From a virus, in the IMG/VR virus record IMGVR_UViG_3300019124_000012, positions 1 through 46,852 of that record: 46,852 bases of DNA. One strand, given 5' to 3'. The position numbers and the translations under genes were made by a program. The notes under the pieces were generated by a model. It saw only the letters and a program-made list of their open reading frames with translations, had not been told where the DNA came from and did not search any database. Of this stretch, positions 4,090 to 46,852 are shown piece by piece; position 1 is the first letter of the stretch, and each line of letters starts with the position of its first letter.

Positions 4090-4921
4090 GGCTGTCTACG
4101 AAAACCACATGGGTGATGACCTCACCATCGTGAACGCTGCCCGTGTGAGCTTCGGGAAGCGTAGTCAATGGGTTGAAATCGAAGGCCCCGTGCAGACGGA
4201 GGTTGATTACGACTCCCGCTCGATCATCGAGTATCGTGAGAAGACCTACGTTCTCAAGGAGGCCGACAAGCGGCTGATCCACTTCCTGGCTCGCGGCTGC
4301 GAGTCCAAGGAATGGGACGCCCTGGTCGAGCAGATGTTCCGTGGCGTGGGTGTCTCTGACCGGTTCACTGAGAGCCGCGAGGAGGCTGAGGCCTTGGTGA
4401 AATACATCAAGGACCAGCCCACCCATTGGACACCCTTCGGGCACACCGCGATCACCCTGGTCGAGCAATGCCCGATCCCCATCGCTCGCCAGCGTTTCAA
4501 GCATGCGACCGGCACGGTCTACAATGAGATCAGCCGCCGCTATGTTGAGGACGGTATCGAGTTCTATTGGCCCGACGAGTGGCGCTCGAAAGCAGAGGAC
4601 AAGAAACAGGGCTCAGGTGATCCCCTGCCCGAAGAGGTTCAGGTGGAGATCGACCTTCTCTACGCGGAGACTGTCGGGCTCGCCTTGGAGAACCACGAGA
4701 AGGCCCTGAAGCTCGGTCTTTGCCCAGAGCAGGCTCGTTTCTTCATCCCTCAGGGAATGATGACTCAGTATTGGGTGACAGGGAACCTGTACTGCTTCGC
4801 CCAGGCCTACAAGAAGCGCATCCGTCCTGACGCGCAATATGAGATCCGCCTCCTGGCTCAGGATTGGGACCGGATCATTCGCCCCCTCTTCCCTCAAGCA
4901 TGGTCAGCCTTGGTGGACTGA
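4082..4921 (+). CDS. thyX: ThyX-like flavin-dependent thymidylate synthase family protein (279 aa)
   Basis: Segment ARQRFKHATGTVYNEISRRY aligns to the ThyX signature region (RQxFRHRxxSxNExSxRY), but the RHR triplet reads KHA. The internal ATG at 4082 was chosen because the 5' extension of the track ORF overlaps the previous gene. Confidence 0.65.
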   Translation: MIKAVYENHMGDDLTIVNAARVSFGKRSQWVEIEGPVQTEVDYDSRSIIEYREKTYVLKEADKRLIHFLARGCESKEWDALVEQMFRGVGVSDRFTESREEAEALVKYIKDQPTHWTPFGHTAITLVEQCPIPIARQRFKHATGTVYNEISRRYVEDGIEFYWPDEWRSKAEDKKQGSGDPLPEEVQVEIDLLYAETVGLALENHEKALKLGLCPEQARFFIPQGMMTQYWVTGNLYCFAQAYKKRIRPDAQYEIRLLAQDWDRIIRPLFPQAWSALVD

Positions 4922-8875: not shown

Positions 8876-9027
8876 TGTTCACCTTCCTGTTTGGCGTGAG
8901 TGTTGCCCTCAATGTCTGCCTCGGTTTCATCGTGGCCCATCTGGTGGGCGAGATCGAGGACATCTCGGACATCCTTGAGGGTGACTTCAGCGATTGGTCT
9001 GAACGGCCAGAAGATCGCCTGCACTAA
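8875..9027 (+). CDS. Small membrane protein (50 aa)
   Basis: N-terminal TM MFTFLFGVSVALNVCLGFIVAHLV followed by an acidic tail. Translationally coupled. Confidence 0.4.
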   Translation: MFTFLFGVSVALNVCLGFIVAHLVGEIEDISDILEGDFSDWSERPEDRLH

Positions 9028-9256: not shown

Positions 9257-11341
9257 ATGCTTTCAAACGCGCCTGTCGAGATCGCGGCTCCGTCCGTTCG
9301 CGCTCAGGTCGTTACACGTCGCACCTACAACAGGCCCCTGGATGACCAGGGGTCTATTTTTGAAACCTGGGAGCAGACGGTTGACCGTGTGATCTCCCAT
9401 CAGCGCTGGCTCTGGGAACGCGCCAAGGGCCGCGTGAAGACCGTCGAGTACGGCAACAAGTTCACTGGAGAGGTCCAGCAGCGCCAGGAGTTCGTCCCTG
9501 GCAAGCTCACGGCTCGCGAGGAGCTGGAGCTGGACGAGCTTCGTCAGCTCATGCTGGCCCGTAAGGCTGTCACGGCAGGCCGCACCCTTTGGCTGGGTGG
9601 CACGGAGATCGCGAAGCGCCGTGAAGCCTCGATGTTCAATTGCAGCTTCGCTCGCGTGGAGACAGTTAATGATGTTGTCGATGGCTTCTGGAATCTTCTC
9701 CAGGGCTGCGGCGTTGGCTTTGAGCCTGTCGTTGGCACTCTCTCAGGTTTCACAAAGCCCGTCGAATTGGAGCTTCGTCGCTCCGCAAAGACCAAAGATG
9801 ACCCGAAAGGTCGTGAGACGAATCTGGAAACCATCGAAAACGTCGATGGCAAAGTAGTCTGGACGATCCTGATCGGTGACTCGGCTGAGGCTTGGTCGAA
9901 GGTTCCCGGCAAGCTCCTGGCGAACAAGGTGATGTGCGACAAGCTCATCCTCGACTACACGGAGATCCGTGGAGCCGGTGTTCGCCTCAAGGGGTACGGA
10001 TGGATCTCCTCAGGCGACGAGACGCTCTCCAAGGCTCTCGCGGCCATCGTGACGCTCCTGAACAAGCGAGCCGGTCAGCTCCTGACCCGTATCGACATTC
10101 TGGACATCATGAACCACCTGGGGACGACCCTTAGCTCCCGCAGGAGCGCAGAGATCGCCATTGTGCCTTATGGTGATCCTGAGTGGATTCCCTTCGCCAA
10201 GGCCAAGAAAGACCACTGGATCGACAACCCTCAGAGGGCTCAGTCGAACAACTCCATCGTCTTCTACCACCGTCCCTCCAAGGCAGAGCTTCAGGACATC
10301 TTCGACCTGATGATCGATGCCGGTGGCTCGGAGCCTGGGTTCATCAACGGCACCGCAGCGCTCAAGAGAGCCCCGTGGTTCAAGGGCGTGAATCCGTGTG
10401 CAGAAATTCTGCTAGGTAATAAATCCTATTGTAACCTTGTTGAGGTGGACCTCGGCAAGTTCAATGGGGATTGGGAAGGCCTCTGCGAGGCACAGCGCCT
10501 GATCGCCAGGGCGAACTACCGGCAGACTTGCGTGGACCTCAGGGACGGCATCTTGCAGGACTCCTGGCATGAGCTGAACCAGTTCCTGCGCCTGACCGGT
10601 GGTGGTGTGACGGGTATCGTCCGCTGGGAGCATCAGCACTCCGCTGAACACCGTAAGGCTCTCAGGAACATCGCGAAGCTCGCGAGCTACAAGATGGCTG
10701 ACGAGCTGGATATGCCGCGCTCCAAGGCCGTGACCACGATCAAGCCTTCAGGAACCCTGAGCAAGATCATGGACACGACGGAGGGCCTGCATAAGCCCCT
10801 TGGCCGCTACATCTTCAACAACGTCCGCTTCTCCAAGCACGATCCCCTGGTGGAGATCTGCCGGGAGGCTGGCTACCGGGTCTTCGATGATCCCTATGCC
10901 TCGGATGCTGTCCTCATCACCTTCCCGGTCGCCTGGGAGGATGTGGAGTTCGATGTGGTCGAGCGGGATGGCAAGATCCTCCATGTGAACCTTGAGTCCG
11001 CCGTCACGCAGCTTGATCGCTACAAGGCCTGGATGGACGACTATGTCGATCACAACGCCTCGATCACTGTGTCCTACGATCCCTCGGAAGTCCCTGAGAT
11101 CGTGGATTGGATCTACGAGAATTGGGACAGCTATGTGGGTGTGTCGTTCTTGTTCCGTAACGATCCCACGAAGACCGCAGAGGACTTGGGATACCCCTAC
11201 CTCCCGCAGGAGGTCGTCACGGAGGAGGCCTACAAGGCTTACGTGGCAAACCTGAAGCCTCTGGTGCTTGAGCAGCAGGCGAACAGCCTGGACGAGCTGG
11301 AGGACGAAGGATGTGCGACCGGCGCATGCCCAATCCGATAA
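9257..11341 (+). CDS. Ribonucleotide reductase, single-chain, class II-like (694 aa)
   Basis: Active-site finger GVNPCAEILLGNKSYCNLVEV and C-terminal Cys pair CATGACPIR. No beta-subunit gene is present in the genome. The class assignment is an inference. Confidence 0.75.
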   Translation: MLSNAPVEIAAPSVRAQVVTRRTYNRPLDDQGSIFETWEQTVDRVISHQRWLWERAKGRVKTVEYGNKFTGEVQQRQEFVPGKLTAREELELDELRQLMLARKAVTAGRTLWLGGTEIAKRREASMFNCSFARVETVNDVVDGFWNLLQGCGVGFEPVVGTLSGFTKPVELELRRSAKTKDDPKGRETNLETIENVDGKVVWTILIGDSAEAWSKVPGKLLANKVMCDKLILDYTEIRGAGVRLKGYGWISSGDETLSKALAAIVTLLNKRAGQLLTRIDILDIMNHLGTTLSSRRSAEIAIVPYGDPEWIPFAKAKKDHWIDNPQRAQSNNSIVFYHRPSKAELQDIFDLMIDAGGSEPGFINGTAALKRAPWFKGVNPCAEILLGNKSYCNLVEVDLGKFNGDWEGLCEAQRLIARANYRQTCVDLRDGILQDSWHELNQFLRLTGGGVTGIVRWEHQHSAEHRKALRNIAKLASYKMADELDMPRSKAVTTIKPSGTLSKIMDTTEGLHKPLGRYIFNNVRFSKHDPLVEICREAGYRVFDDPYASDAVLITFPVAWEDVEFDVVERDGKILHVNLESAVTQLDRYKAWMDDYVDHNASITVSYDPSEVPEIVDWIYENWDSYVGVSFLFRNDPTKTAEDLGYPYLPQEVVTEEAYKAYVANLKPLVLEQQANSLDELEDEGCATGACPIR

Positions 11342-11348
11342 CGGATGT

Positions 11349-11366
11349 CCCTGGAGCAATCCAGGG
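11349..11366 (+). terminator. Hairpin CCCTGGA-GCAA-TCCAGGG just after the RNR stop
   Basis: 7-bp perfect stem with a GNRA tetraloop 8 nt after the stop. No U-tract, so it could be a processing or stability hairpin. Confidence 0.3.
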
Positions 11367-11490
11367 CATCCTTCAGATGGTCATCTGGCATTGTATGATG
11401 GCGAAGTTCGCTGAGGAATGTCAGATGCCTGAGGATCGCAGGTATCACGCCTACCATGCACTAAGGCTCTGGAGCTACTTGGAAAAGTAG

Positions 11491-11564
11491 TGGAGGCGTC
11501 GCCCGGAATCGAACCGGGATGGAAGGATTTGCAGTCCTCTGCCTCACCATTCGGCCACGACGCC
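11491..11564 (-). tRNA. tRNA-Cys (anticodon GCA), 74 nt with encoded CCA
   Basis: Folded by hand. 7-bp acceptor stem GGCGUCG/CGACGCC, T arm CCCGG-UUCGAUU-CCGGG, anticodon arm GAGGA-CUGCAAA-UCCUU, and discriminator U followed by CCA. Confidence 0.9.
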
Positions 11565-11587: not shown

Positions 11588-11640
11588 AAAAAAACCCCTG
11601 GATAGCAAGAGGTCATCCTCAAGCCGTCCAGGGGTTTTTT
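11588..11640. terminator. Bidirectional factor-independent terminator at the convergence of the two arms
   Basis: aaaaaaa-CCCCTGGA...TCCAGGGG-tttttt: an 8-bp stem flanked by an A-run and a T-run. The loop is long (24 nt). Confidence 0.6.
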
Positions 11641-12552: not shown

Positions 12553-15486
12553 TCAGCGAACGAGCCACTCTTCGACCTTGTCGGAGATGTCTCGCATCTT
12601 CCGCCAGCGTGGGCCTACAGGTTCGCCCTTGAGCATCCTGAGCTTTCCCATGAGCCCGATGGGCGACCACTCAGGGCGCTCCTCGCGAGGCACGTAGGGC
12701 CGATCAGGATCGTACTCAGGATTGAGGATACGCAGCTCTTCCCACACGTACTCAGCGTCCTCAGGAGGCACGACGCCCTCAGGGATCTTATCGACCTCGT
12801 AGACGAACGACGCTCGGTTGTTGGGATCGTCAGGATCGCCGTATGGATCGAAGTCAGGGTTCTTCCAGTAGACGCGCTGGACCCTACGCCTGAGGTAGTT
12901 CCCAAAGTCATCCCGAAGGTATTGGTCCTGCCAGCGTTCCTGGGCAGAGTCGCCCATCACAACAGGGCAGGCCGACACAACACCGATGATGTCCTCAGGG
13001 TCATCCGCAGCGGTCGCACGGCGCACCTTGTCGTCCACAAGGACCACGGACCAGCCGCGACGATCCTCGTTGTCAGGGTTACCATCCTCCCACTCGAAAT
13101 ACTCGGCATAGTCAGCGCCCGTGCCTGTGTAAGGACCGTCACCAAACGTTGCACCGTCGCCTCGCACATACCATTCGGTATCAGCCGCACCGTTGTTGTC
13201 CGAAGTGGCTCGGTAGAACTTGAAGCCGGTACTCTGAGTGCGATCCGCGTAAGAGCGGACAACGTCGTCAGCGGAACCAGACCGGTTGTAACCAAACAGA
13301 GCGCGGGAAGTAGACGTGTTGTACGCACCAAGCCCGTAAGCACCGGCACCAGCATCGATGAGCAACGCAGCGCCAGTGTTGTACTTGGCCGCGAGTACGT
13401 TCGACAGCCATGCACCGGCCCACGGCATGTAGAGGTTACCGTCAGAAGCCAGGTGCCACCCACCGCGACCATCAAGGGTCGCAGAGCCTAAGTAGGACAG
13501 ACCGTCGTTATACACACGGAAGCACCAAGCACCACCAGAGCCAACGAAGCCGATAGAGCCACCGTTGTTGTGAACAAAGCGGGTGCCTTCGTCCGTATCG
13601 TGCATCTCAAGCCACGATTGGTTCTGGCCCATACCCACACGGACCCTTTCGTTGGTGTTCAGGCCATTGGGGGTCCAGAGGGTGCCGCTAGAGCTGAGGG
13701 TCAGCAGGCTGGTTTCCCAGGCACCGGAAGCGCTCAGACGGTCGATATTGACCTGTCCTGCACGGCCATAGATGACGTTCTGCTTTCCATCGCCGCCCTT
13801 ACCAACCAGACGATAACCAGCCCACCCATCAGTTCCAGGGTGTTCAGCCGTGAAGCACCAACCAGCGCCTGTAGCAGTAACCGTTCCGGTGAAGGTCGCC
13901 CCAGAGAGGTTGGCCTTCTGAGCCAGGAGGTTATCCGCCTCGGTCTTGCTGTAGTAGTTCTGGGGATTCCACGTCTGAGCATTGGCCGCGCTCTGGGCTG
14001 CATTAGCGGCACTTGCGGCAGCATTGGCCTCAGAGGTCGCCGCAGCGTTCTTATGCGCCAGGGCAGAGGCAGCGGAGGTCGAGGCCTCGGAAGCCTTGGT
14101 AGAGGCCGTAGAAGCCGAAGAGGACGCATCGGCAGCCGAAGCCGCAGCCTCGGATGCTTTCGTGGTGATGAAAGTCGGATTGTCCGCGAGGAAGAGGATA
14201 TGCTCAACCTCAAACACGTCACCAACGGACCCCTCGGACGGGTCGAAACGGACACCCGTGATCGTGTTGGTCAACCAATCGGAGCCGTTGTTGATCTTTG
14301 TACTGTCCCTGAGGTCATAGACACAGTCGTACCAGACCCCATTGGCGAACGCCGGGGTTACGAGTGGTCGCCCGTTGTAGGCACCGTGACCGTGGCTGGC
14401 CGTCGTCCAATACAACTGCATCTGAGGGACAGCCGATCCGGTAGTGCGGCGAATACGGATCACAACCCTGGTGAACTTGCTGCCGTCAATGGACAGAGAG
14501 TTCCTCACGAAGTACAGGTCCGAATTGCTCCCGGTCTGTGTCACGACCAGAGGACCGCTTCCGCTCTGCGAGAGAGTGCCGTTGACACATGAGAAGCCCT
14601 GGACACCCTTGTTAGGGAACACAAAGGACTGAGGGTGAGCCTCTTGGAACGAGAGGGCCGTCAGGTACCCCTCAGCATACGCCCTCGCCGTCTCGGCTTT
14701 CGTCTCAGAGGTCTTTGCCGCATTTTCAGAAGCCTTCGCGTTGTTCTCGGAGGTCTTGGCAGCGGTTTCAGACGCCTTGGCGTTCGTCTCGGAGGTCTTG
14801 GCAGCAGTCGCACTTGCGGATGCCTCAGAAGCCTTTGTAGAGGCCGTAGAGGCCGATGTTGAGGCGTTGGAGGCGGAAGTAGCCGCAGCGTTCTTATGGC
14901 CCTCAGCGGTCGTCGCAGAGGCCGCAGCGGCGTTCTTAGACGCCAGGGCGTTGTCCTCGGAAGTCTTAGCCGCATTCTGGCTTGCGAGGGCCGCAGAGGC
15001 GCTTGAGGCCGCATTGGAGGCCGAAGTAGCCGCAGCGTTCTGAGAGGCCTTAGCGGCGTTCTCAGAGGCCTTGGCGTTCGTCTCGGAGGTCTTTGCGTTC
15101 TGCTCGGACACACTCGCAGCCACCTTGGAGGCCGCAGCCGCGTTGGCGTTGTCGATGGTCGCCTGGAGGGACTGAGCCGCCTGGGAGGCGCTGTTGGAGG
15201 AATCCGTTGCAGAGGCCGCAGAAGCCTGAGCGCTCAGATGGGCATCTTGGGCACTCGCAGCGCTGTTCGCAGCCTGGGTCGCGCTCGCAGCTCGGCTCGT
15301 ATCGGAAGCCTGAGCAGCCACAGAGGCGTTGAACGCGCTCTGGGCCGCATCGGCAGCAGCTTGGTCAGTCTCGCTCTTCTTCTGAAGAACGATGTTCATG
15401 GCCTCGGTAGCGTCTTCAAGCAGCTCCTGGGCCAAACGAATAGATGTCGGGCTGGGGTTGCCCTTGAAAAATCCTGAACTAGCCAT
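12553..15486 (-). CDS. Tail fibre / receptor-binding protein (977 aa from the ATG at 15486)
   Basis: Long Ala/Ser-rich repeats (AKTSETNAKASENAAK...), a central beta-rich domain, and a C-terminal GTGADYAEYFEWEDGN segment typical of autoproteolytic intramolecular-chaperone domains. The track start at 15495 is TTG. Confidence 0.75.
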   Translation of the reverse strand: MASSGFFKGNPSPTSIRLAQELLEDATEAMNIVLQKKSETDQAAADAAQSAFNASVAAQASDTSRAASATQAANSAASAQDAHLSAQASAASATDSSNSASQAAQSLQATIDNANAAAASKVAASVSEQNAKTSETNAKASENAAKASQNAAATSASNAASSASAALASQNAAKTSEDNALASKNAAAASATTAEGHKNAAATSASNASTSASTASTKASEASASATAAKTSETNAKASETAAKTSENNAKASENAAKTSETKAETARAYAEGYLTALSFQEAHPQSFVFPNKGVQGFSCVNGTLSQSGSGPLVVTQTGSNSDLYFVRNSLSIDGSKFTRVVIRIRRTTGSAVPQMQLYWTTASHGHGAYNGRPLVTPAFANGVWYDCVYDLRDSTKINNGSDWLTNTITGVRFDPSEGSVGDVFEVEHILFLADNPTFITTKASEAAASAADASSSASTASTKASEASTSAASALAHKNAAATSEANAAASAANAAQSAANAQTWNPQNYYSKTEADNLLAQKANLSGATFTGTVTATGAGWCFTAEHPGTDGWAGYRLVGKGGDGKQNVIYGRAGQVNIDRLSASGAWETSLLTLSSSGTLWTPNGLNTNERVRVGMGQNQSWLEMHDTDEGTRFVHNNGGSIGFVGSGGAWCFRVYNDGLSYLGSATLDGRGGWHLASDGNLYMPWAGAWLSNVLAAKYNTGAALLIDAGAGAYGLGAYNTSTSRALFGYNRSGSADDVVRSYADRTQSTGFKFYRATSDNNGAADTEWYVRGDGATFGDGPYTGTGADYAEYFEWEDGNPDNEDRRGWSVVLVDDKVRRATAADDPEDIIGVVSACPVVMGDSAQERWQDQYLRDDFGNYLRRRVQRVYWKNPDFDPYGDPDDPNNRASFVYEVDKIPEGVVPPEDAEYVWEELRILNPEYDPDRPYVPREERPEWSPIGLMGKLRMLKGEPVGPRWRKMRDISDKVEEWLVR

Positions 15487-32656: not shown

Positions 32657-33406
32657 TTAGATCCTCATGATGAAAGCGAGCGCATAGAACGGAGGACGGC
32701 CATCGGGGATCGAGACGTTGTGCGCGTGAGCGCCAGCCCAATCCATGCCGACACCGTGCGAGTGCGAGCCATCCGAATTGATGCCGTGGCGATGCCCCTG
32801 ACCACCACCAACCTTGCCTGTGGAGGTCGCTAGGTAGAGCGTGCCCTGGCCGAAGTAGTTGACCGCTGATGCAGAGCCGGTCCCCATGTTCCAGACGCTC
32901 GGAAGCGAGTGGTCGTGCGAGGGGATCTGGGCAATGGTCAGCGTGTGGTAGTCCGTGTAGCCACCGTGGTTGTGCGAGCCTGCCGCACCGGTCCATGCAG
33001 AGTGAACGTGAGAGCCCTGGGAATCCGTGGAGCCCCCTTGGGCCACAGAGCCACCGGTCGCTCCAACACCATACGAAGCACCAGCCCCTACGATGAAGCG
33101 ATCCTGAAGGTTCGGAGCGGTGATCTGACCGCCACCATCAGAGCGCGTATGGGTACCACCGTTACACAAGACCCAGCCTGCCGGGATCTGATTGATCGCA
33201 CCGGACCACATGAGGATGCCACCAATCGGCACACCACCATTCAACACATGCTGGGAAGCTGTTACGGGACCACTGATGTTCGGGAAGGTGTTCTTAAGAA
33301 CCTGCTTGATCAGCCTGATATGGTTATCGGTATCCGCAACTGGATCGGAACCAGCAGGGTTACCAGGGTTCAACGAATGTAAGTACGTTGCGGATTCAAT
33401 AGGCAC
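32657..33406 (-). CDS. Tail fibre protein with phage tail-collar domain and Gly/His-rich repeats (249 aa)
   Basis: GGILMWSGAINQIPAGWVLCNG...APNLQDRFIVGAG is the tail-collar signature. It is followed by GSHxH-type repeats (GSHVHS, GSHNHG, PSHDHS, GHRHG, GSHSHG, GAHAHN). GTG start. Confidence 0.8.
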   Translation of the reverse strand: MPIESATYLHSLNPGNPAGSDPVADTDNHIRLIKQVLKNTFPNISGPVTASQHVLNGGVPIGGILMWSGAINQIPAGWVLCNGGTHTRSDGGGQITAPNLQDRFIVGAGASYGVGATGGSVAQGGSTDSQGSHVHSAWTGAAGSHNHGGYTDYHTLTIAQIPSHDHSLPSVWNMGTGSASAVNYFGQGTLYLATSTGKVGGGQGHRHGINSDGSHSHGVGMDWAGAHAHNVSIPDGRPPFYALAFIMRI

Positions 33407-33444
33407 TTAAGGAATCCTTTGGTAATGAAAATTGATTGTTGAAG

Positions 33445-33474
33445 TAAAAGGGGAGCATCAGAGGCTCCCAAAAG
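33445..33474 (-). terminator. Hairpin GGGAGC-N7-GCTCCC with flanking A/T runs
   Basis: On the minus strand it reads cttttGGGAGCctctgatGCTCCCctttta. It lies upstream of the first structural gene, where it would stop minus-strand transcription coming from 34-35 kb. Confidence 0.45.
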
Positions 33475-33538
33475 AAGAACTTAAGGTTTTTCTTAAGATC
33501 TGAAGATTTCGCGGAGGCATCTGACGGCCTCTTCTTCT

Positions 33539-33584
33539 AAGAGTGGTCATCGGCTCGCATTTTTGGGCCTTAAGTCTTTGAAAC
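33539..33584. repeat. Left copy of the 45-46-bp inverted repeat (partner 40213..40257)
   Basis: The 29-bp core aagagtggtcatcggctcgcatttttggg (33539-33567) is the exact reverse complement of 40229-40257. The next 16 aligned bp match at 12-13 positions. Confidence 0.9.
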
Positions 33585-34068
33585 ATCGAAAAATTCCTGC
33601 TACATGCCCGACATTATTCCTAAGATTGCAATTGGCATGGATCAGGAGCGGTCGAAGCTCCGCAGCAGGACAACTTGTCGCACCCTAAGAGGAGCCTGGG
33701 GCCAGCCTGGGAGTCCCTGAGAGACTGAAGGTAGCGCGAATGTAACCGGTACCTTGAGGTTGGGCTGGGGGTGGACTTATGCGTCTGGGGAATATCTGGA
33801 GGAGTCCCAGAGGGTCACTCTCGCCTCCTCGGCTGAACAACAACGCTCGACCTTTAACCCTTTTTGCGAAGTGGGGTATGGCGGACCATAGGTGCCCCAT
33901 CCGCTCGCCTGGGACTCCTAAACTCGCCTGGGATCTGCCCCGCTTGTGTGCCCCGCAAGGGTGCTAAGTGCTTGAGTTAGCTTGTGTTTCTCAGGATAAG
34001 CAATCCCTAGCGTTGCGCTATTCATGCGAGAGCATGCGCGGACATTGGCGACATATCGCCAGCGCAAG

Positions 34069-34077
34069 TTATCCACA
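34069..34077 (+). promoter_or_regulatory. DnaA box, perfect consensus TTATCCACA
   Basis: Exact 9-mer, inside the 18-bp repeat cgcaagttatccacaaga (34063-34080). Confidence 0.6.
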
Positions 34078-34087
34078 AGATCGTGAG

Positions 34088-34096
34088 TTTTCCACA
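34088..34096 (+). promoter_or_regulatory. DnaA box variant TTTTCCACA
   Basis: One mismatch to TTATCCACA. Same orientation as box 1 and 19 bp away. Confidence 0.5.
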
Positions 34097-34155
34097 AGTG
34101 CCGCGAGATTTCGCGAGCTGCCGCTTGACATGCGCGAAACGCATGATCTCGCAAG

Positions 34156-34164
34156 TTATCCACA
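34156..34164 (+). promoter_or_regulatory. DnaA box, perfect consensus TTATCCACA
   Basis: Exact 9-mer in the second copy of cgcaagttatccacaaga (34150-34167). It is followed by the AT-rich tandem GAATTTT-a-GAATTTT. Confidence 0.6.
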
Positions 34165-34240
34165 AGAATTTTAGAATTTTGCATGTCAAGCCCTTGACAA
34201 AATTTTATTGCGCGGAACCGAATGCCCCTAAGATCCCATT

Positions 34241-34260
34241 AGAAGCCCACAGAAGCCCAC
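34241..34260 (+). repeat. Tandem 10-mer AGAAGCCCAC x2 (iteron-like)
   Basis: Two exact adjacent copies. An inverted partial copy, TGGGCTTC, is at 34311-34318. Confidence 0.8.
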
Positions 34261-34339
34261 GAACCCTATTTAGCTAGGATAGTAGCTCGCATGTATCCAA
34301 TGCCGCTCTATGGGCTTCCTATGCGATTTTACGGGCACA

Positions 34340-35008
34340 TTAGTGCAAGGGATAGCTAACGTTGCTGACGTTCTTATCCCAGCAGGCGCGGCATGGTCCG
34401 CAAGCATTCCCCTGGTTACGTGCGGGGCACACATGACCGGCTGGAGTTTCCGCCTTCCGATGCACGGTTGACGTATTCTCATGGTTCGCAAGCGGCTTAT
34501 CGCCAATCATGGTCGCACTAACGCGAACCACAAGGTTCTCAGGAAAATTCCCATAGGCCTTGCGATATTCCTTAATGATCTTTGCCTCGCGAGTCGGAAG
34601 CCAATGGCGGATTGTTGGCGTCTTCTCAGCAACGCGAACGATTGCCTTAAGCATGTCCAAGCTCTGGAGATCGCCACTATCGAACCAACGATGGAAAGGC
34701 TCGCCTGTCTTCTCAGAAGCCTTGACGATTTGGAACGCCATTGCATCGGACCACTTCTCAGGATTCTCCGAGATCATGCGAGTTGCTTTGAGATAGTTGG
34801 CTTCCCATCCCATGTTGACGCTAGGCCGCATGTTCTGGAGCTTGAGAGCATAGCAACGCGAGCAAACAGAACCTTCGATTTGCGCGAGCTTTCCGCCAAC
34901 GTTGCAGCGCTTTGCTGAGATCGCAAAAGAAGAGCCCGGCATCTTTGTGTTGCGCGTAGAGATTTCGCCAGCTTCCGCCTTAGCAGCCTTAAGAGTCATT
35001 GCGACCAT
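34340..35008 (-). CDS. Cys-rich protein resembling the phage 'gene product 88' family, function unknown (222 aa from the ATG at 35008)
   Basis: N-terminal C-x14-C-x2-C (CNVGGKLAQIEGSVCSRCYA), HRWFDSGD segment, and C-terminal C-x8-C-x2-C-x2-C (CPARNQGNACGPCRAC). GGAGAA RBS before 35008. The family name is from memory and not verified. Confidence 0.6.
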   Translation of the reverse strand: MVAMTLKAAKAEAGEISTRNTKMPGSSFAISAKRCNVGGKLAQIEGSVCSRCYALKLQNMRPSVNMGWEANYLKATRMISENPEKWSDAMAFQIVKASEKTGEPFHRWFDSGDLQSLDMLKAIVRVAEKTPTIRHWLPTREAKIIKEYRKAYGNFPENLVVRVSATMIGDKPLANHENTSTVHRKAETPAGHVCPARNQGNACGPCRACWDKNVSNVSYPLH

Positions 35009-37450: not shown

Positions 37451-37888
37451 ATGATGATCATGCTAGAGAACCTCACCATGAATGCAGCAACCGCTTCTGG
37501 GGTCCGAATGGCGTCAGACAAATACGCACGGCCCTCAGATGAGGCCGTTGCCGCCCTGGACCGCTCTTATCGTCTTATAAAGGCCTTCCGCGATCGTGAT
37601 CACAAGATGCCAATCAGTTACATGGCCGCATTCATTGTGGTGGCACGTTTCCCAGGCATGGGACCGTCGTTCTATGCTGAGAAGCTCGGTACCACTCAGC
37701 CGGTCGCCTCCCGCACCCTTCAAGAGATCGGCACGAATCCTCGCGTGAAGGGCAAAGGCCTGGAGCTGGTGGACAGCGAGATTGATCCAGGCAACCGCAG
37801 GCAGCACCGCTACTTCCTGACCCCTAAGGGCCGTGGGCTCTACCGGGACATTCTGACGATCATGGGTGAAGCCGCAGGACACGCCTAA
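37451..37888 (+). CDS. Winged-helix (MarR-like) transcriptional regulator, candidate prophage repressor (145 aa)
   Basis: TTQPVASRTLQEIG...LELVDSEIDPGNRRQHRYFLTPKG fits the recognition helix plus beta-wing of MarR-type wHTH proteins. It has its own 156-bp upstream region and lies beside the integrase. Confidence 0.5.
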   Translation: MMIMLENLTMNAATASGVRMASDKYARPSDEAVAALDRSYRLIKAFRDRDHKMPISYMAAFIVVARFPGMGPSFYAEKLGTTQPVASRTLQEIGTNPRVKGKGLELVDSEIDPGNRRQHRYFLTPKGRGLYRDILTIMGEAAGHA

Positions 37889-39281: not shown

Positions 39282-39493
39282 CGTTTGAAGAGTTCCTGAC
39301 GGACTTCGTTACGTTCTTCTCGACGTTACATAAGAACCCTGCGTTCTGGCTTTGGCTCCTCACGCTGGTCGCGGCCTACTTCCACATAGGACAGCTTGAG
39401 AAACAGTGGGACGCTGAGAAGCGCAGGCTGGTCGATGAGATCGGAGCTTTGAAGATCAAGCTCGGTAAACTGACCGGCAATTGGGACTTCTGA
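39278..39493 (+). CDS. Hypothetical membrane/coiled-coil protein (71 aa)
   Basis: ATGA-coupled to the integrase stop. TM segment AFWLWLLTLVAAYF. Confidence 0.45.
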   Translation: MTFEEFLTDFVTFFSTLHKNPAFWLWLLTLVAAYFHIGQLEKQWDAEKRRLVDEIGALKIKLGKLTGNWDF

Positions 39494-39519
39494 TCGAGTT
39501 ACCTTTAGCAGCCAAACTT

Positions 39520-39545
39520 GGGGCCTTCTGAGGCCCCTTTTTTTA
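39520..39545 (+). terminator. Factor-independent terminator GGGGCCT-tctg-AGGCCCC-TTTTTTT
   Basis: 7-bp GC stem followed by a T7-8 run, downstream of the integrase operon. Confidence 0.75.
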
Positions 39546-39675
39546 TCCCCAGGCACTTCCCTAGCCTGGAGCGCCCAATCGGCCTGTACGGGCTTCCTAC
39601 GCGATCTCTGGGCCTATTACGTTTCAACAGTAAGTCCGATTTTTGCCTTCAACTGTTGAACCAAGGGCTTGAGCC

Positions 39676-39693
39676 TTGACATATCGTAATTAC
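39676..39693 (+). promoter_or_regulatory. Cassette variant TTGACATATCGTAATTAC
   Basis: Shares CGTAATTAC with the consensus and begins with a TTGACA hexamer. Confidence 0.3.
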
Positions 39694-39858
39694 GGTTATT
39701 CCGGGGAGTTTTGTCCTTTTATTCCCAGAATGCCCCGTGCGGGGTACTTTGCGGGGCATTTTCGCTTCGTAATTGCAATTGTATTCTTGCCACACCAGCC
39801 TAAGAGCCTGAGATTGCTCACTAATTTTGCTGGGGATAAATTCAGGCAGTCATTCGAG

Positions 39859-39871
39859 GGATTTGCAGTCC
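39859..39871. other. 13-nt copy of the tRNA-Cys anticodon stem-loop (GGATTTGCAGTCC); candidate attP core
   Basis: Identical to 11525-11537 inside the phage tRNA-Cys gene, in the same orientation. It lies in the integrase-RNAP spacer and has the layout GGA / 7 nt / TCC. Confidence 0.35.
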
Positions 39872-39963
39872 AGGTCGTTACGCCCCTTCCTGCCCCGCAC
39901 CTGAACGGCGATTCCTTAAGACTTCCAACGGGTTAGTTGATGTCAAGGGTCGCTGGCACCCCG

Positions 39964-39981
39964 CAGATACAACGTAATTCC
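39964..39981 (+). promoter_or_regulatory. Cassette cAGATACAACGTAATTCC sitting in the loop of a 9-bp inverted repeat
   Basis: AGATACAACGTAATT is identical to the 35851 copy. It is flanked by CCCCGCAGA (39960-39968) and TCTGCGGGG (39990-39998). Confidence 0.4.
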
Positions 39982-40150
39982 ACATGGTTCTGCGGGGCAC
40001 TTGACCCGGCCCTCCTCTACCCCGCAGCTTCACCGGTTGCAAGCCGCTACCTTGTTACTGCCAAGCCTGAGTCAGCTTGTCGCACTTATGGCCCAGCTTT
40101 TCCACAGCAAAGCTCTTGCGCGTACACCCGCGTATGGTATCTAAAGCGCA

Positions 40151-40168
40151 TCGACTCATCGTAATTCC
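40151..40168 (+). promoter_or_regulatory. Cassette variant tcGACTCATCGTAATTCC upstream of the RNAP gene
   Basis: Shares CGTAATTCC with the 39964 copy. Confidence 0.3.
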
Positions 40169-40212
40169 AGTTCAAATGGAGCTACGGAGCAAAACAGGGT
40201 TTTATCGTTGGA

Positions 40213-40257
40213 TTTCAAACGGTTAAGACCCAAAAATGCGAGCCGATGACCACTCTT
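40213..40257. repeat. Right copy of the 45-46-bp inverted repeat (partner 33539..33584)
   Basis: The 29-bp core cccaaaaatgcgagccgatgaccactctt (40229-40257) is the exact reverse complement of 33539-33567. It ends 61 nt upstream of the RNAP ATG. Confidence 0.9.
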
Positions 40258-40318
40258 GCCCAGACGGCGATCTCAAACCCTGGTCCCCTCGATGGGACGC
40301 AACAAACGGGAAACAGAC

Positions 40319-42880
40319 ATGCTGCTTGATGCAACCAACTCCGCTTCCGCCACCCTGAATCCTTGGGAGGCTCGTAAGCTCTCTTTTGATCGTCAGAACG
40401 ACCGCAACATCCGCAACAATGGCTATTCCGCCACGGAAGCTGCTCAGGCGATCATCCGCAAGTTCATGGCCGAAACCACGGAGGCCGTGACCAAGGCTCA
40501 GGCTCAGGAGGTGGACTACCGCAACCAGCGGGAACATGAGTTCCAAGAGATCGCCCGTGAGATGGACCCTGAGGTTCTGGCGCTCATTGCGCTGACCGGG
40601 GGCATCCATGCGACCGCTGAGGACATGAACTACACCAACACGGTCCTTCATCTCGGTGAGATGGTTGAGGATGAGGTGTGGGCTCAGGGCCTCTATGCTC
40701 GCGATAAGGTTCTCGCTCGCAACCTTGAGAAGGCTGCTTCCAAGCGCCACGGTCGTGTCTCTGCCCGTAAGCAGGCCGTCAAGAAGATGGCTGCGAAGAA
40801 GGGCTACTCTCAGAAGGCCTGGACCCGCGAGGAGTGGGCTACGGCTGGAGCGTGGCTCTTCAACGTCCTGATCGAGACTTCCGCCTTCATGGCCGTGAAG
40901 CGCACCGACACGAACGACTATGGGACCGAAGAAACCTTCCTCGCCATGACCGAAGAGGCTCTGGCTGTGGGTGAGGCCTTCGTCCAGATGATCCTCGACC
41001 AGTACCCGATCCATCAGCCGCTCCTCAAGAAGCCTGCGCCCTGGAAGGGGCCTGAGAAGGCTCTGGAGTTCGATGGCCGGTCCTACCGTGTTCCCCTGGT
41101 TCGTAAGGACTGCAAGGTTGTTCAGTCTCACGTTGCCAATGCGATCAAGACCGGTCGCATGGATGGCGTTCTGGAGGCCATGAACAACATCGAGAGCGTG
41201 GCCTGGACGATCAACGAGCCCATGCTGGAGCTGGTCGAGTGGGCCTACAACGCGGACCCGCGCTGGGGCGAAGGCTACCGGAAGCGCCTGGAGGGCCTGC
41301 CGCCTCGCCGGAACCTCAAGGAGGTCAAGCTGCCTCAGGACACGGAAGGCAACGATATTCCTTTCGAGATGCTCGATGAGGGCCAGCGCAAGGCCTACCT
41401 GATCGCTCTCGACAAGGAGCAGACCGCGAACCGCGCCTTCAACGGCCAGCGTCGGACCCTTGAGAAGGATCTCGGCACGGCCTGGAGGATCGTGGAGGGT
41501 GGCAACAAGTTCTGGACGCCCTGCAACATGGACTACCGGGGACGGGTCTACTACCTCCCGCAGTTCAACTTCCAGCGCCAGGACTATGTCCGGTCCCTCT
41601 TCCTGTTCGCATCGGGCGAGAAGCTCAACGAGGAAGGCCTCTACTGGCTCAAGGTCCACGTCGCGAACACGGGTGCCTTCGACAAGATGGACAAGGCCCC
41701 CTTCCCTGATCGCGTGAAGTGGGTAGACGACAACATGGAGATGATCCGTGGCGTGGCTGCGGACCCCAAGGGCACCTTTGCCACCTGGGGCGAGGCTGAT
41801 GCTCCCTTCATGTTCGTCGCGGCCTGCATCGAGCTGGTGGCTGCTCTGGATAACCCTGAGTACATCTGCCGCCTGCCGGTCAACTTCGACGGCTCCTGCT
41901 CTGGCCTTCAGCATCTGGCTGCAATGACCCGCTGCGCTCGGACTGCCACCCTGGTGAACGTGAGCCCCACGGAGCGCCCTGGCGACATCTACCGGACGGT
42001 CTGGGAGGCTGTGCTTCCCAAGTTCCAGTGGGATGCCAAGCACGGCGAAGGCGAGACGAAGGTGATGGGCCAGTTGGTGGTCGATCACAACGGAGGTCGC
42101 GGCCTCGTTAAGCGGAACGTGATGGTGTACTCTTACGGCTCCAAGAAGTTCGGCATGGCTGAACAGCATCAGGAAGACCTGATGAAGCCCCTGGAGCTGA
42201 AGGTTCTCCGCAAGGAGCTGAAGGACCATCCGTTCGCCATGCCTGACGAGAAGTTCCCCGGCCAGAAGGTCGCCAAGTATCTCGCAGGGCACATCTTCGA
42301 CACCATCGAGGAGGTGGTCGAGAAGCCTGCCCAGGCCATGAAGTACCTCCAGCACATTGCGAAGGTCATGGCCCATGAGGGCAAGCCGGTGATCTACCAC
42401 ACGCCCCTTGGGTTCCCTGTGGTGATCCGCTGCCCCAATGAGAAGGTCGAACGGGTTCGCCTGTTCCTCCATGATCGCGGTGTGAAGAGCCCCATCAGGG
42501 CTTCGATCACCAAGGACGATGCCGGAATCGATAAGAAGGCTGCGGCCAACACCATCGCTCCTGGCTTCGTTCATTCTTATGACGCATGCCATTTACAGTT
42601 GGTTGCCAATTCCTGTGTGAAGGAGGGCATCCGCGAGCTGGCATTCGTTCACGATAGCTTCGGGTGCCTGCCCAACAAGGCCGGTCGCCTGCGGCAGATC
42701 CTCGTGGAGCAGTTCTATTGGCTCTACGCCATGCACGATGTTCTGGAGGACATCCGCCAGGAAGCTCTCCAGCAACTCGAAACCAACAAGGACAAGCTCT
42801 CTGACTCTTTCGACACTCAGTACGGGAAAGGAGGGCTGAACATCGAGGCTGTTCTTGATGCACAGTACGCATTTGCTTGA
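40319..42880 (+). CDS. Single-subunit DNA-dependent RNA polymerase (T7 gp1-like), 853 aa
   Basis: Motifs DGSCSGLQHLAA, RNVMVYSYGSKKFG and FVHDSFG. The start is uncertain: ATG 40319 was chosen, with ATG 40292 and TTG 40256 as alternatives. Confidence 0.9.
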   Translation: MLLDATNSASATLNPWEARKLSFDRQNDRNIRNNGYSATEAAQAIIRKFMAETTEAVTKAQAQEVDYRNQREHEFQEIAREMDPEVLALIALTGGIHATAEDMNYTNTVLHLGEMVEDEVWAQGLYARDKVLARNLEKAASKRHGRVSARKQAVKKMAAKKGYSQKAWTREEWATAGAWLFNVLIETSAFMAVKRTDTNDYGTEETFLAMTEEALAVGEAFVQMILDQYPIHQPLLKKPAPWKGPEKALEFDGRSYRVPLVRKDCKVVQSHVANAIKTGRMDGVLEAMNNIESVAWTINEPMLELVEWAYNADPRWGEGYRKRLEGLPPRRNLKEVKLPQDTEGNDIPFEMLDEGQRKAYLIALDKEQTANRAFNGQRRTLEKDLGTAWRIVEGGNKFWTPCNMDYRGRVYYLPQFNFQRQDYVRSLFLFASGEKLNEEGLYWLKVHVANTGAFDKMDKAPFPDRVKWVDDNMEMIRGVAADPKGTFATWGEADAPFMFVAACIELVAALDNPEYICRLPVNFDGSCSGLQHLAAMTRCARTATLVNVSPTERPGDIYRTVWEAVLPKFQWDAKHGEGETKVMGQLVVDHNGGRGLVKRNVMVYSYGSKKFGMAEQHQEDLMKPLELKVLRKELKDHPFAMPDEKFPGQKVAKYLAGHIFDTIEEVVEKPAQAMKYLQHIAKVMAHEGKPVIYHTPLGFPVVIRCPNEKVERVRLFLHDRGVKSPIRASITKDDAGIDKKAAANTIAPGFVHSYDACHLQLVANSCVKEGIRELAFVHDSFGCLPNKAGRLRQILVEQFYWLYAMHDVLEDIRQEALQQLETNKDKLSDSFDTQYGKGGLNIEAVLDAQYAFA

Positions 42881-46531: not shown

Positions 46532-46852
46532 TGGGTACCTTCGTTCGTCACGCTGAATGCCTCAACCCCAAGTGTGGCTCCAGCGATGGACGAGGTGTCT
46601 ATGAGGACGGAAGCTCCTGGTGCTTCGTCTGTGAAACCTACTTCCACGCTGATGGGGCTGAGGGCGACACCAACCCCCACTTCGACCCCACCACCTTCAA
46701 GTTCAGCAAAGGAGACTACGTAGACATCCCCAAGCGGGGACTGAAGGAAGCCACATGCCGCAAGTACGGCTATCAGGTCGCCAAGGACCGCCATATCGCG
46801 CCCTACCGTGGCGCAAACGGCCAGATCATCGCTCAGAAGATCCGCAAGGCCG
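46531..46852 (+). CDS. DNA primase/helicase, N-terminal Zn-finger part (continues at base 128 of the window)
   Basis: MGTFVRHAECLNPKCGSSDGRGVYEDGSSWCFVCETYF is a gp4-type CxxC...CxxC zinc ribbon. The frame is continuous with 1..1446 through the 127-bp overlap. Confidence 0.9.
   Translation, partial: MGTFVRHAECLNPKCGSSDGRGVYEDGSSWCFVCETYFHADGAEGDTNPHFDPTTFKFSKGDYVDIPKRGLKEATCRKYGYQVAKDRHIAPYRGANGQIIAQKIRKA
46726..46852. repeat. Terminal overlap of the contig, identical to 1..127
   Basis: Exact 127-bp identity, read directly. Confidence 0.95.

Follow-up and report, generated by a model that had tools for sequence, protein, structure and literature searches.

The 46,852-nucleotide (nt) viral sequence IMGVR_UViG_3300019124_000012, called the window below and the frame for all coordinates, comes from a phage in which a tyrosine integrase gene is separated from a T7-type RNA polymerase gene by a non-coding spacer. 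We find that a 13-mer within this spacer, GGATTTGCAGTCC at 39859-39871, is very likely the core of the phage attachment site (attP), directed at the anticodon loop of a host transfer RNA gene, tRNA-Cys. Since the attP carries no spare tRNA half, the tRNA-Cys encoded by the phage itself probably replaces the gene that is split. To this complete mechanism of trans-complementation, i.e. tRNA-dependent lysogeny, we assign a probability of about 0.7. An earlier annotation of the window, the sequence-only reading, implied too high a degree of novelty because the mechanism has already been published (for phage HTVC019P and in PMC10865867); the window phage adds a case of that arrangement and not a new mechanism.

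The 13-mer occurs exactly twice in the window, at 39859-39871 and at 11525-11537, both times on the + strand, and no third copy was found in the whole stretch with one mismatch allowed. The copy at 11525-11537 sits inside the tRNA-Cys(gca) gene that ARAGORN places on the minus strand, and the 13-mer is the reverse complement of GGA-CUGCAAA-UCC, comprising 3 bp of the anticodon stem and the loop. The sequence-only reading had asserted both the identity of the two segments and the nature of the spacer copy as an antisense tRNA-Cys(GCA) anticodon stem-loop, and the exact search and the ARAGORN placement, respectively, bear this out. Identity between the two copies extends over exactly 13 bp, the flanking bases being different on the left (G/A) and on the right (A/T). 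The spacer copy lies in a 1.0-kb non-coding stretch between the integrase, with an adjoining open reading frame (ORF) of 71 aa, and the RNA polymerase gene. The segment across which strands are exchanged, i.e. the overlap segment, is likely the loop TTTGCAG at 39862-39868.

By itself, the 13-mer match is weak evidence. In the window, 86 maximal direct repeats are 13 nt long or longer, which agrees with the earlier remark that a 13-mer repeat is not rare in a 47-kb genome. In 40,000 dinucleotide shuffles of the spacer some 13-mer in common with the tRNA was found 45 times (1.1e-3), matching the chance of ~10^-3 estimated before, while the particular 13-mer of the anticodon stem-loop appeared once (~2.5e-5). 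Because the match taken alone is weak, the case rests on the comparison with relatives.

Related loci, designated by L-numbers (L003, L177 and so forth), were retrieved for this comparison. About 90 of them, obtained via alignments of distant integrases (A2) and RNA polymerases (A4), have the order regulator, integrase, spacer, RNA polymerase; the relatives are covered in part only, mostly 5-10 kb on each side of one gene. In more than 40 of the ~90 loci the spacer contains a tRNA fragment that halts at the anticodon loop. The fragments derive from tRNA-Cys, -Ser, -Tyr, -Thr, -Phe and -Leu and occur in all four combinations of half and orientation, including sense-oriented 5′ halves of tRNA-Cys (L003-L005, L009-L014 and numerous others), 5′ halves of tRNA-Ser (L015, L018, L020), a tRNA-Ser 3′ half in antisense (L016), tRNA-Tyr 5′ halves in antisense (L197-L205, L211, L223) and 3′ parts of tRNA-Thr and tRNA-Phe; whole tRNAs are present in the spacers of L187, L225 and L240. 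A large uncultivated family with the order integrase, attP, RNA polymerase (L003-L020, L177-L256) appears to exploit the anticodon-loop sites of these six tRNA types.

The loci whose integrases are closest to that of the window are of the tRNA-Cys type and share its orientation; read along the integrase strand, their tRNA pieces terminate in GGATTTGCAG(TCC). On this strand L177, L190 and L183 read TGGAGGCC...CAA-GGATTTGCAGTCC followed by unrelated sequence, which corresponds to an antisense tRNA-Cys 3′ part stopping at the right edge of the 13-mer. In L181, L184-186, L208-210 and L254 the 3′ part stops some bases earlier, inside or just past the loop. L191 is the mirror image, in which GGATTTGCAGTCC comes after unrelated sequence and leads into an antisense tRNA-Cys 5′ half starting from the left edge of the 13-mer (GGA), and L187 has the whole tRNA-Cys in its spacer. 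The segment common to relatives with a 3′ part and relatives with a 5′ half is exactly the 13-mer of the window. It is present in every alphaproteobacterial tRNA-Cys gene examined (Shinella, Sinorhizobium, Sphingomonas), and the attP of L177 and L184 is identical to the Shinella tRNA-Cys over 44 aligned nt from the anticodon loop to CCA. The proposal of the sequence-only reading that the 13-mer is a crossover core at a tRNA anticodon loop is therefore supported, since this 13-mer also forms the end of the tRNA-Cys pieces in the closest relatives, in the same orientation. Relatives with a 3′ part, a 5′ half, a whole tRNA or nothing can be regarded as a natural deletion series by which the functional core is delimited to the 13-bp stem-loop. 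Two further ideas were dropped. That of an inverted copy, suggested by the sense tRNA-Cys 5′ halves of L003-L005, was abandoned because closer relatives share the orientation of the window. Nor was TCGAaTGACTGCC, a match in 12 of 13 positions on the downstream side of the loop, retained as homology, because of its spacing (12 vs 16 nt); the clade of 377-aa integrases to which L003-L005 belong has a conserved CTGCC-ACTTGTAAA exactly 16 nt beyond the loop.

In the anticodon-loop class of integrases that Williams is said to have described in 2002, the crossover reportedly corresponds to the 7-nt loop and the symmetric stem to the core-type sites, with the attP located beside the integrase. In the classical members the block of identity reportedly reaches the end of the tRNA gene so that the gene is restored. 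The window departs from this feature, its block being 13 bp only, whereas in L177, L183 and L191 the block does reach the gene end. Indeed, the window alone lacks a tRNA half among ~15 loci of the tRNA-Cys type. In the spacer (39480-40280) the Rfam tRNA model gave no match at E<=10, while the same model, as a positive control, detected the partial tRNA of L177 in a region of equal size with 18.5 bits. Beyond the 13 bp, no tRNA half beside the core was visible by eye or in alignments to the phage tRNA and to the Shinella tRNA-Cys. The claim made earlier, that the flanks do not resemble a tRNA and that integration would not rebuild the host gene, thus withstands both the alignments and the controlled Rfam search. 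In the relatives, the 3′ part or 5′ half beside the core means that the tRNA gene should be rebuilt; the window attP holds the core only, and integration should therefore leave two incomplete tRNA halves.

The complete tRNA-Cys(GCA) is the sole tRNA of the genome according to ARAGORN, and the window is the only sampled member of the family with a free-standing tRNA-Cys. Its acceptor stem GGCGUCG/CGACGCC is perfect and it has a discriminator U. The earlier description of this tRNA as complete, down to the encoded CCA, is confirmed by its Rfam score (Table 1). It is 89% identical to the tRNA-Cys of Shinella and 88% to that of Sinorhizobium, with compensatory differences in the acceptor and D stems, and is of alphaproteobacterial (Rhizobiales/Sphingomonadales) type. 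The tRNA-Cys of a 290-kb bacterial metagenome contig matches it exactly over a run of 31 bases that begins in the D arm and includes the anticodon stem-loop. Among the partly covered genomes of the relatives, no tRNA-Cys was found in 55 ribonucleotide reductase-anchored and 30 DNA polymerase-anchored loci, nor was a free-standing tRNA-Cys present in the sampled parts of the integrase-anchored loci. The suggestion that the phage tRNA could compensate for the loss of the host gene holds as far as sequence can tell, this tRNA being canonical and none being present in the sampled parts of these ~85 loci. The stop codon of a + strand ORF of 59 aa (11311-11490) directly adjoins the minus-strand tRNA at its 3′ end, which recalls Fionnbharth, where the tRNA overlaps the end of an oppositely oriented gene (PMC10865867). 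Free-standing tRNAs of any other type were likewise absent from the sampled ribonucleotide reductase- and DNA polymerase-anchored loci, except that in L125, a distant, DNA polymerase-anchored relative, ARAGORN finds a tRNA-Tyr with the unusual anticodon ATA at 14311-14381.

At least some members of the family persist as prophages, as shown by the record IMGVR_UViG_2927030885_000003 (L249 + L017). Its RNA polymerase gene lies at the contig start (52-2577) and its integrase at ~44-45 kb, directly followed by a complete tRNA-Ser(TGA) and then by unrelated genes. It is an integrated relative, with the structure expected from recombination in the spacer between integrase and RNA polymerase. The tRNA-Ser is followed by a GMT-wHTH + DUF5131 gene pair, which is host- or island-like. 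Another record, IMGVR_UViG_2829814883_000002 (L073, L180), is the closest relative (ribonucleotide reductase 72% identical in aa, PhoH 69%, the small gene that follows the tRNA 60%). Its ribonucleotide reductase gene is not followed by a tRNA, and high-GC host-like DNA begins ~290 nt upstream of its RNA polymerase gene. As a junction case it was uninformative since no integrase, tRNA piece or core is found upstream of the RNA polymerase.

The core is flanked by repeats of the motif TGCGGGGYA, which is present in seven copies in the window where 0.74 would be expected (~10-fold enriched). Five of the seven copies are found in the spacer between integrase and RNA polymerase, on both sides of the core (Table 1). 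In L177 and L190 the TGCGGGG motif occurs at offsets -146, -135, -124, -114, +127 and +137, of which the copies at +127 and +137 share the strand of the +130 copy in the window. Agreement is closest between -123, -111 and +130 in the window and -124, -114 and +127 in L177/L190 (GCGGGG repeats). The repeats are present on both sides of the core, at positions conserved in L177/L190. Such a conserved placement would be expected of arm-type integrase sites if the attP were of the heterobivalent lambda type and had the loop at its centre. Further TGCGGGGCA copies are located at 33949 (-) in the non-coding region 33400-34340 and at 34421 (+) in a gp88-like ORF. The spacer also contains four copies of another motif, CGTAATT, which occurs 17 times in the window (1.4 expected), chiefly in intergenic positions or at gene starts; the sites include 1457, 35859, 39685, 39768, 39973, 40160 and 44642. 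It is often lengthened to ACAACGTAATTAC or found as the palindrome CGTAATTACG, and may be a promoter or operator element; GACGTAATTAC lies ~30 nt upstream of the core of phage HTVC019P.

We propose that the integrase would assemble on ~300 bp (~39730-40030), where its arm-binding function would hold the flanking TGCGGGGYA repeats while the protein also binds the core. The core would recombine with the identical GGACUGCAAAUCC anticodon stem-loop of a host tRNA-Cys(GCA), probably alphaproteobacterial, by strand exchange across the 7-nt loop. In the resulting prophage, the RNA polymerase gene should be the first gene at the left end and the integrase gene should lie at the other end. Integration would leave two dead halves of the host tRNA-Cys, the function of which would be supplied in trans by the phage tRNA-Cys, and excision would restore the host gene.

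This course of events closely resembles what has been reported for the Pelagibacter phage HTVC019P (Autographiviridae, Pelagivirus) by Zhao et al. in 'Pelagiphages in the Podoviridae family integrate into host genomes' (10.1101/410191). Junction sequencing established that the host tRNA-Cys is split by this phage at an attP located between integrase and RNA polymerase, and use of the phage tRNA instead was proposed (10.1101/410191). In the HTVC019P genome we find GGATTTGCAATCC at 4714-4726 on the integrase strand without tRNA flanks, and a tRNA-Cys at 8946-9019 on the strand opposite to the integrase. Both phages have the order regulator, tyrosine integrase, attP, T7-type RNA polymerase, with homologous regulators and integrases (28% identity for the latter, E 6e-23). 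In both, the core consists of the tRNA-Cys anticodon stem-loop alone on the integrase strand (GGATTTGCAATCC vs GGATTTGCAGTCC), and a complete tRNA-Cys(GCA) is encoded elsewhere on the opposite strand. HTVC019P differs in being AT-rich, in having a SAR11 host and all genes on one strand, and in the position of its tRNA between amidase and primase, whereas the window phage has a G+C content of 58%, late genes in the opposite direction and its tRNA at the point of convergence after the ribonucleotide reductase gene. The window integrase is 98 aa longer than that of HTVC019P and its tRNA is of the Rhizobiales/Sphingomonadales type. Integration of HTVC019P was seen by junction sequencing, while the window phage is known from sequence alone.

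The name tRNA-dependent lysogeny was given to the phenomenon in actinobacteriophages (Fionnbharth, LeBron, Gaia and others) by Guerrero-Bustamante and Hatfull (mBio 2024; PMC10865867), and the requirement for the phage tRNA has been proven by genetics in mycobacteriophages (PMC10865867). The cores of these phages measure 8-17 bp within the tRNA gene, the tRNA is not rebuilt, and putative arm-type sites flank the core; sister phages with the same integrase family have 40-50 bp cores and no tRNA (PMC10865867). Of the features of these phages the window has the tyrosine integrase, a core limited to 13 bp and a complete tRNA of its own, and its relation to L177 mirrors that of Fionnbharth to Boilgate (PMC10865867). 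On the other hand, the actinobacteriophages are siphoviruses whose targets are tRNA-Lys, tRNA-Ile2 or tRNA-Leu and whose cores lie towards the 3′ side of these tRNAs, unlike the window, which is of podovirus type with an RNA polymerase, has the anticodon stem-loop of tRNA-Cys as core, and carries a tRNA whose necessity we infer.

Prophages of Sinorhizobium meliloti resembling phage Lo5R7ANS are reported to interrupt tRNA-Leu(UAG) centrally and to bring their own tRNA-Leu (PMC11476347). The Mesorhizobium phage vB_MloP_Lo5R7ANS (Autographiviridae, Pairvirus) is like the window phage alphaproteobacterial and T7-type, with regulator, integrase and tRNA upstream of the RNA polymerase. In its sequence (L260, 8500-8900) we find a whole tRNA-Leu between integrase and RNA polymerase, bracketed by multiple GTGACAAA repeats, GTGACAA(A), which suggests that the attP core lies inside the whole phage tRNA. 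This contrasts with the window, where the core is a bare 13-mer and the tRNA is elsewhere. Resemblance of the Lo5R7ANS integrase to that of the window is confined to the catalytic domain (27%).

While our understanding of phage integration is unchanged by this finding, it provides a concrete attP (~39730-40030, core 39859-39871) for an uncultivated phage, together with a predicted bacterial attachment site (attB) in the tRNA-Cys anticodon loop of an alphaproteobacterium. It also adds one case to the question, left open by the 2024 paper (PMC10865867), of whether tRNA-dependent lysogeny occurs outside Actinobacteria, for which the HTVC019P-like pelagiphages and the Lo5R7ANS-like prophages were the only earlier hints. 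Minimal cassettes composed of attP, integrase and tRNA would be useful as integration vectors.

Several observations weigh against the proposed tRNA-dependent lysogeny. No attL, attR or lysogen of this phage was found in the collections searched: the integrase used alone retrieved nothing from genome_contigs and viral_contigs, an integrase alignment run against genome_contigs gave distant catalytic-domain integrases only, outside this family, and the exact pattern of left arm and core had 0 matches in metagenome_contigs, a collection that does not contain the phage itself. Close homologues of the integrase were likewise not found, the only exceptions being two other assemblies of this very phage. 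Both the host and the attB are predicted, and the lack of a free-standing tRNA-Cys in the relatives holds for the sampled parts of their genomes. With respect to expression of the tRNA from the prophage, the tRNA-Cys gene adjoins the late-operon terminator on its downstream side and should therefore need its own promoter or read-through; a consensus scan detected no E. coli-type promoter for it, and TTGCTA-N16-CGATAT at 11608-11581 (-), read by eye, is a possible candidate. The phage tRNA moreover holds the core in direct orientation at 28.3 kb from the attP, so that the integrase could in principle split the phage genome into two circles. Finally, the word lysogeny may overstate the behaviour of the phage, because T7-like cyanophages equipped with an integrase and an attP integrate only transiently and do not form stable lysogens (PMC8776855).

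This last precedent also enters the first alternative, according to which the core is real while the phage tRNA-Cys serves phage translation or anti-defence, the host tolerating the split gene by means of a second copy or because integration is transient. Phage tRNAs have been widely proposed to act in codon usage or anti-defence (PMC10865867), and the position of the present one 28 kb from the attP at the convergence of early and late genes, devoid of a recognisable promoter, would fit such a role. We nevertheless hold this explanation to be unlikely, since the single tRNA of the phage matches both the isotype and the anticodon of the tRNA from which the core derives, relatives that keep a tRNA half have no tRNA-Cys in the regions sampled, and the pairing of core and tRNA recurs in HTVC019P and repeatedly in actinobacteriophages (PMC10865867). 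As to tolerance through a second copy, the Shinella and Sinorhizobium replicons have a single tRNA-Cys match each.

One could also imagine that the phage descends from a tRNA-Cys integrator and that its attP has decayed, i.e. that the tRNA part was lost, that the phage is now lytic only and that core and repeats are relics. The absence of a tRNA half from the window alone among the tRNA-Cys-type loci would be compatible with this, as would the fact that both public assemblies of the phage are free, circularly closed genomes and that no prophage was found. Such a decay appears improbable in view of a full-length integrase that has kept all catalytic residues, a perfect core and arm repeats conserved in sequence and position; it would leave the co-occurrence of a complete cognate tRNA unexplained, and integration is documented for HTVC019P, whose attP is likewise limited to the core (10.1101/410191). 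That the 13-mer is a chance repeat, or part of a promoter or operator for the RNA polymerase unrelated to integration, is most improbable despite the many direct repeats of this length in the window and a spacer rich in CGTAATT, TGCGGGG and other, possibly regulatory repeats, because the specific stem-loop 13-mer is so rarely expected in the spacer and because in independent relatives this sequence recurs at the corresponding place, in the same orientation and between the same flanking repeats, and there can be recognised as the end of a tRNA-Cys fragment.

Within the framework of tRNA-dependent lysogeny, a more speculative extension, which we consider unlikely to hold, is that the core copy in the tRNA-Cys of the prophage re-creates an attB usable for nested or tandem lysogeny, or recombines with attP, and that the family switches between cis and trans solutions. 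If this were true, related phages targeting tRNA-Cys could use the attB inside the prophage after the chromosomal site has been destroyed, and integrase-driven recombination between attP and the phage tRNA in the free genome would yield circles of 28.3 and 18.4 kb. The family would then have switched repeatedly between cis rebuilding of the gene (3′ part, 5′ half or whole tRNA) and replacement in trans, and in the high-GC lineage of the window the trans solution would have arisen independently.

The integrase is 27-36% identical over its full length to the integrases of loci with a tRNA-Cys attP. Its catalytic residues R245, K272, H325, R328, H351 and Y360 are invariant in family alignment A2, and its N-terminal 112 aa, for which Pfam gave no match, are conserved within the family in the same alignment. 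The winged-helix-type regulator gene is conserved upstream of the integrase across the family, with a tblastn match in L003-L018, and in BLASTP its product matches proteins annotated as 'transcriptional regulator' in HTVC019P (E 5e-9) and Lo5R7ANS (E 2e-6). The regulator-integrase operon is closed by an intrinsic terminator. No Pfam or PHROG match was obtained for the 71-aa ORF that overlaps the integrase stop codon, and that it might encode an excision or directionality factor is an unsupported guess made from its position alone. Compared with isolated phages by nucleotide BLAST, the region 37-44 kb yielded short RNA polymerase matches only.

Table 1. Features of the proposed attP region and of the tRNA-Cys locus in the window; offsets are given from the anticodon loop of the core
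Feature	Position	Strand	Remarks
Winged-helix-type regulator	37451..37888	+	just upstream of the integrase
Tyrosine integrase, 388 aa	38115..39281	+	Pfam PF00589, E 1.2e-20
ORF of 71 aa	39278..39493	+	overlaps the integrase stop codon; gene called in both public assemblies
Intrinsic terminator	39520..39546	+	7-pair stem, 6/7 G-C, then TTTTTTT; upstream of attP
Left-arm repeat TGCGGGGTA	39738-39746	+	-123; putative arm-type integrase site
Left-arm repeat TGCGGGGCA	39750-39758	+	-111; putative arm-type integrase site
Phage left arm, ...GGCAGTCATTCGAG			precedes core GGATTTGCAGTCC
Proposed attP common core GGATTTGCAGTCC	39859..39871	+	antisense tRNA-Cys stem 3 bp, loop 7 nt, stem 3 bp
Phage right arm, AGGTCGTTACGCC...			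follows core GGATTTGCAGTCC
Right-arm repeat TGCGGGGCA	39891-39899	-	+31
Right-arm imperfect repeat TGCGGGGTG	39957-39965	-	+97
Right-arm repeat TGCGGGGCA	39991-39999	+	+130
Right-arm repeat TGCGGGGTA	40018-40026	-	+158
T7-type single-subunit RNA polymerase	40292..42880	+	Pfam PF00940, E 7e-85; other boundary of the attP spacer
Complete tRNA-Cys(GCA), encoded CCA	11491..11564	-	ARAGORN; Rfam 62.8 bits vs threshold 29
Late-operon terminator hairpin	11593..11614	-	directly precedes the tRNA gene

The window, assembled from a metagenome, is circularly closed: its ends overlap in a perfect 127-bp duplication inside a coding region (1-127 = 46726-46852), from which a true genome size of ~46,725 bp follows. 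Genes for the regulator, integrase, RNA polymerase, endonuclease I, primase-helicase, DNA polymerase, PhoH, a MazG-like protein and ribonucleotide reductase are on the + strand and the late genes (structural and lysis) on the - strand, the early and late arms converging at the tRNA; opposed late genes were noted for L004 as well. HTVC019P, Lo5R7ANS and classical T7-like phages are unidirectional, unlike this two-armed genome, and the opposed late arm is an unusual layout for an RNA polymerase-encoding genome of the podovirus type. A 0.9-kb non-coding region (33400-34340) separates the late arm from the gp88-like gene and may be an origin or control region. It contains an 18-nt direct repeat, CGCAAGTTATCCACAAGA, at 34063 and 34150, each copy holding a perfect DnaA-box-like TTATCCACA, and a third DnaA-box-like copy, TTTTCCACA, is located at ~34090.

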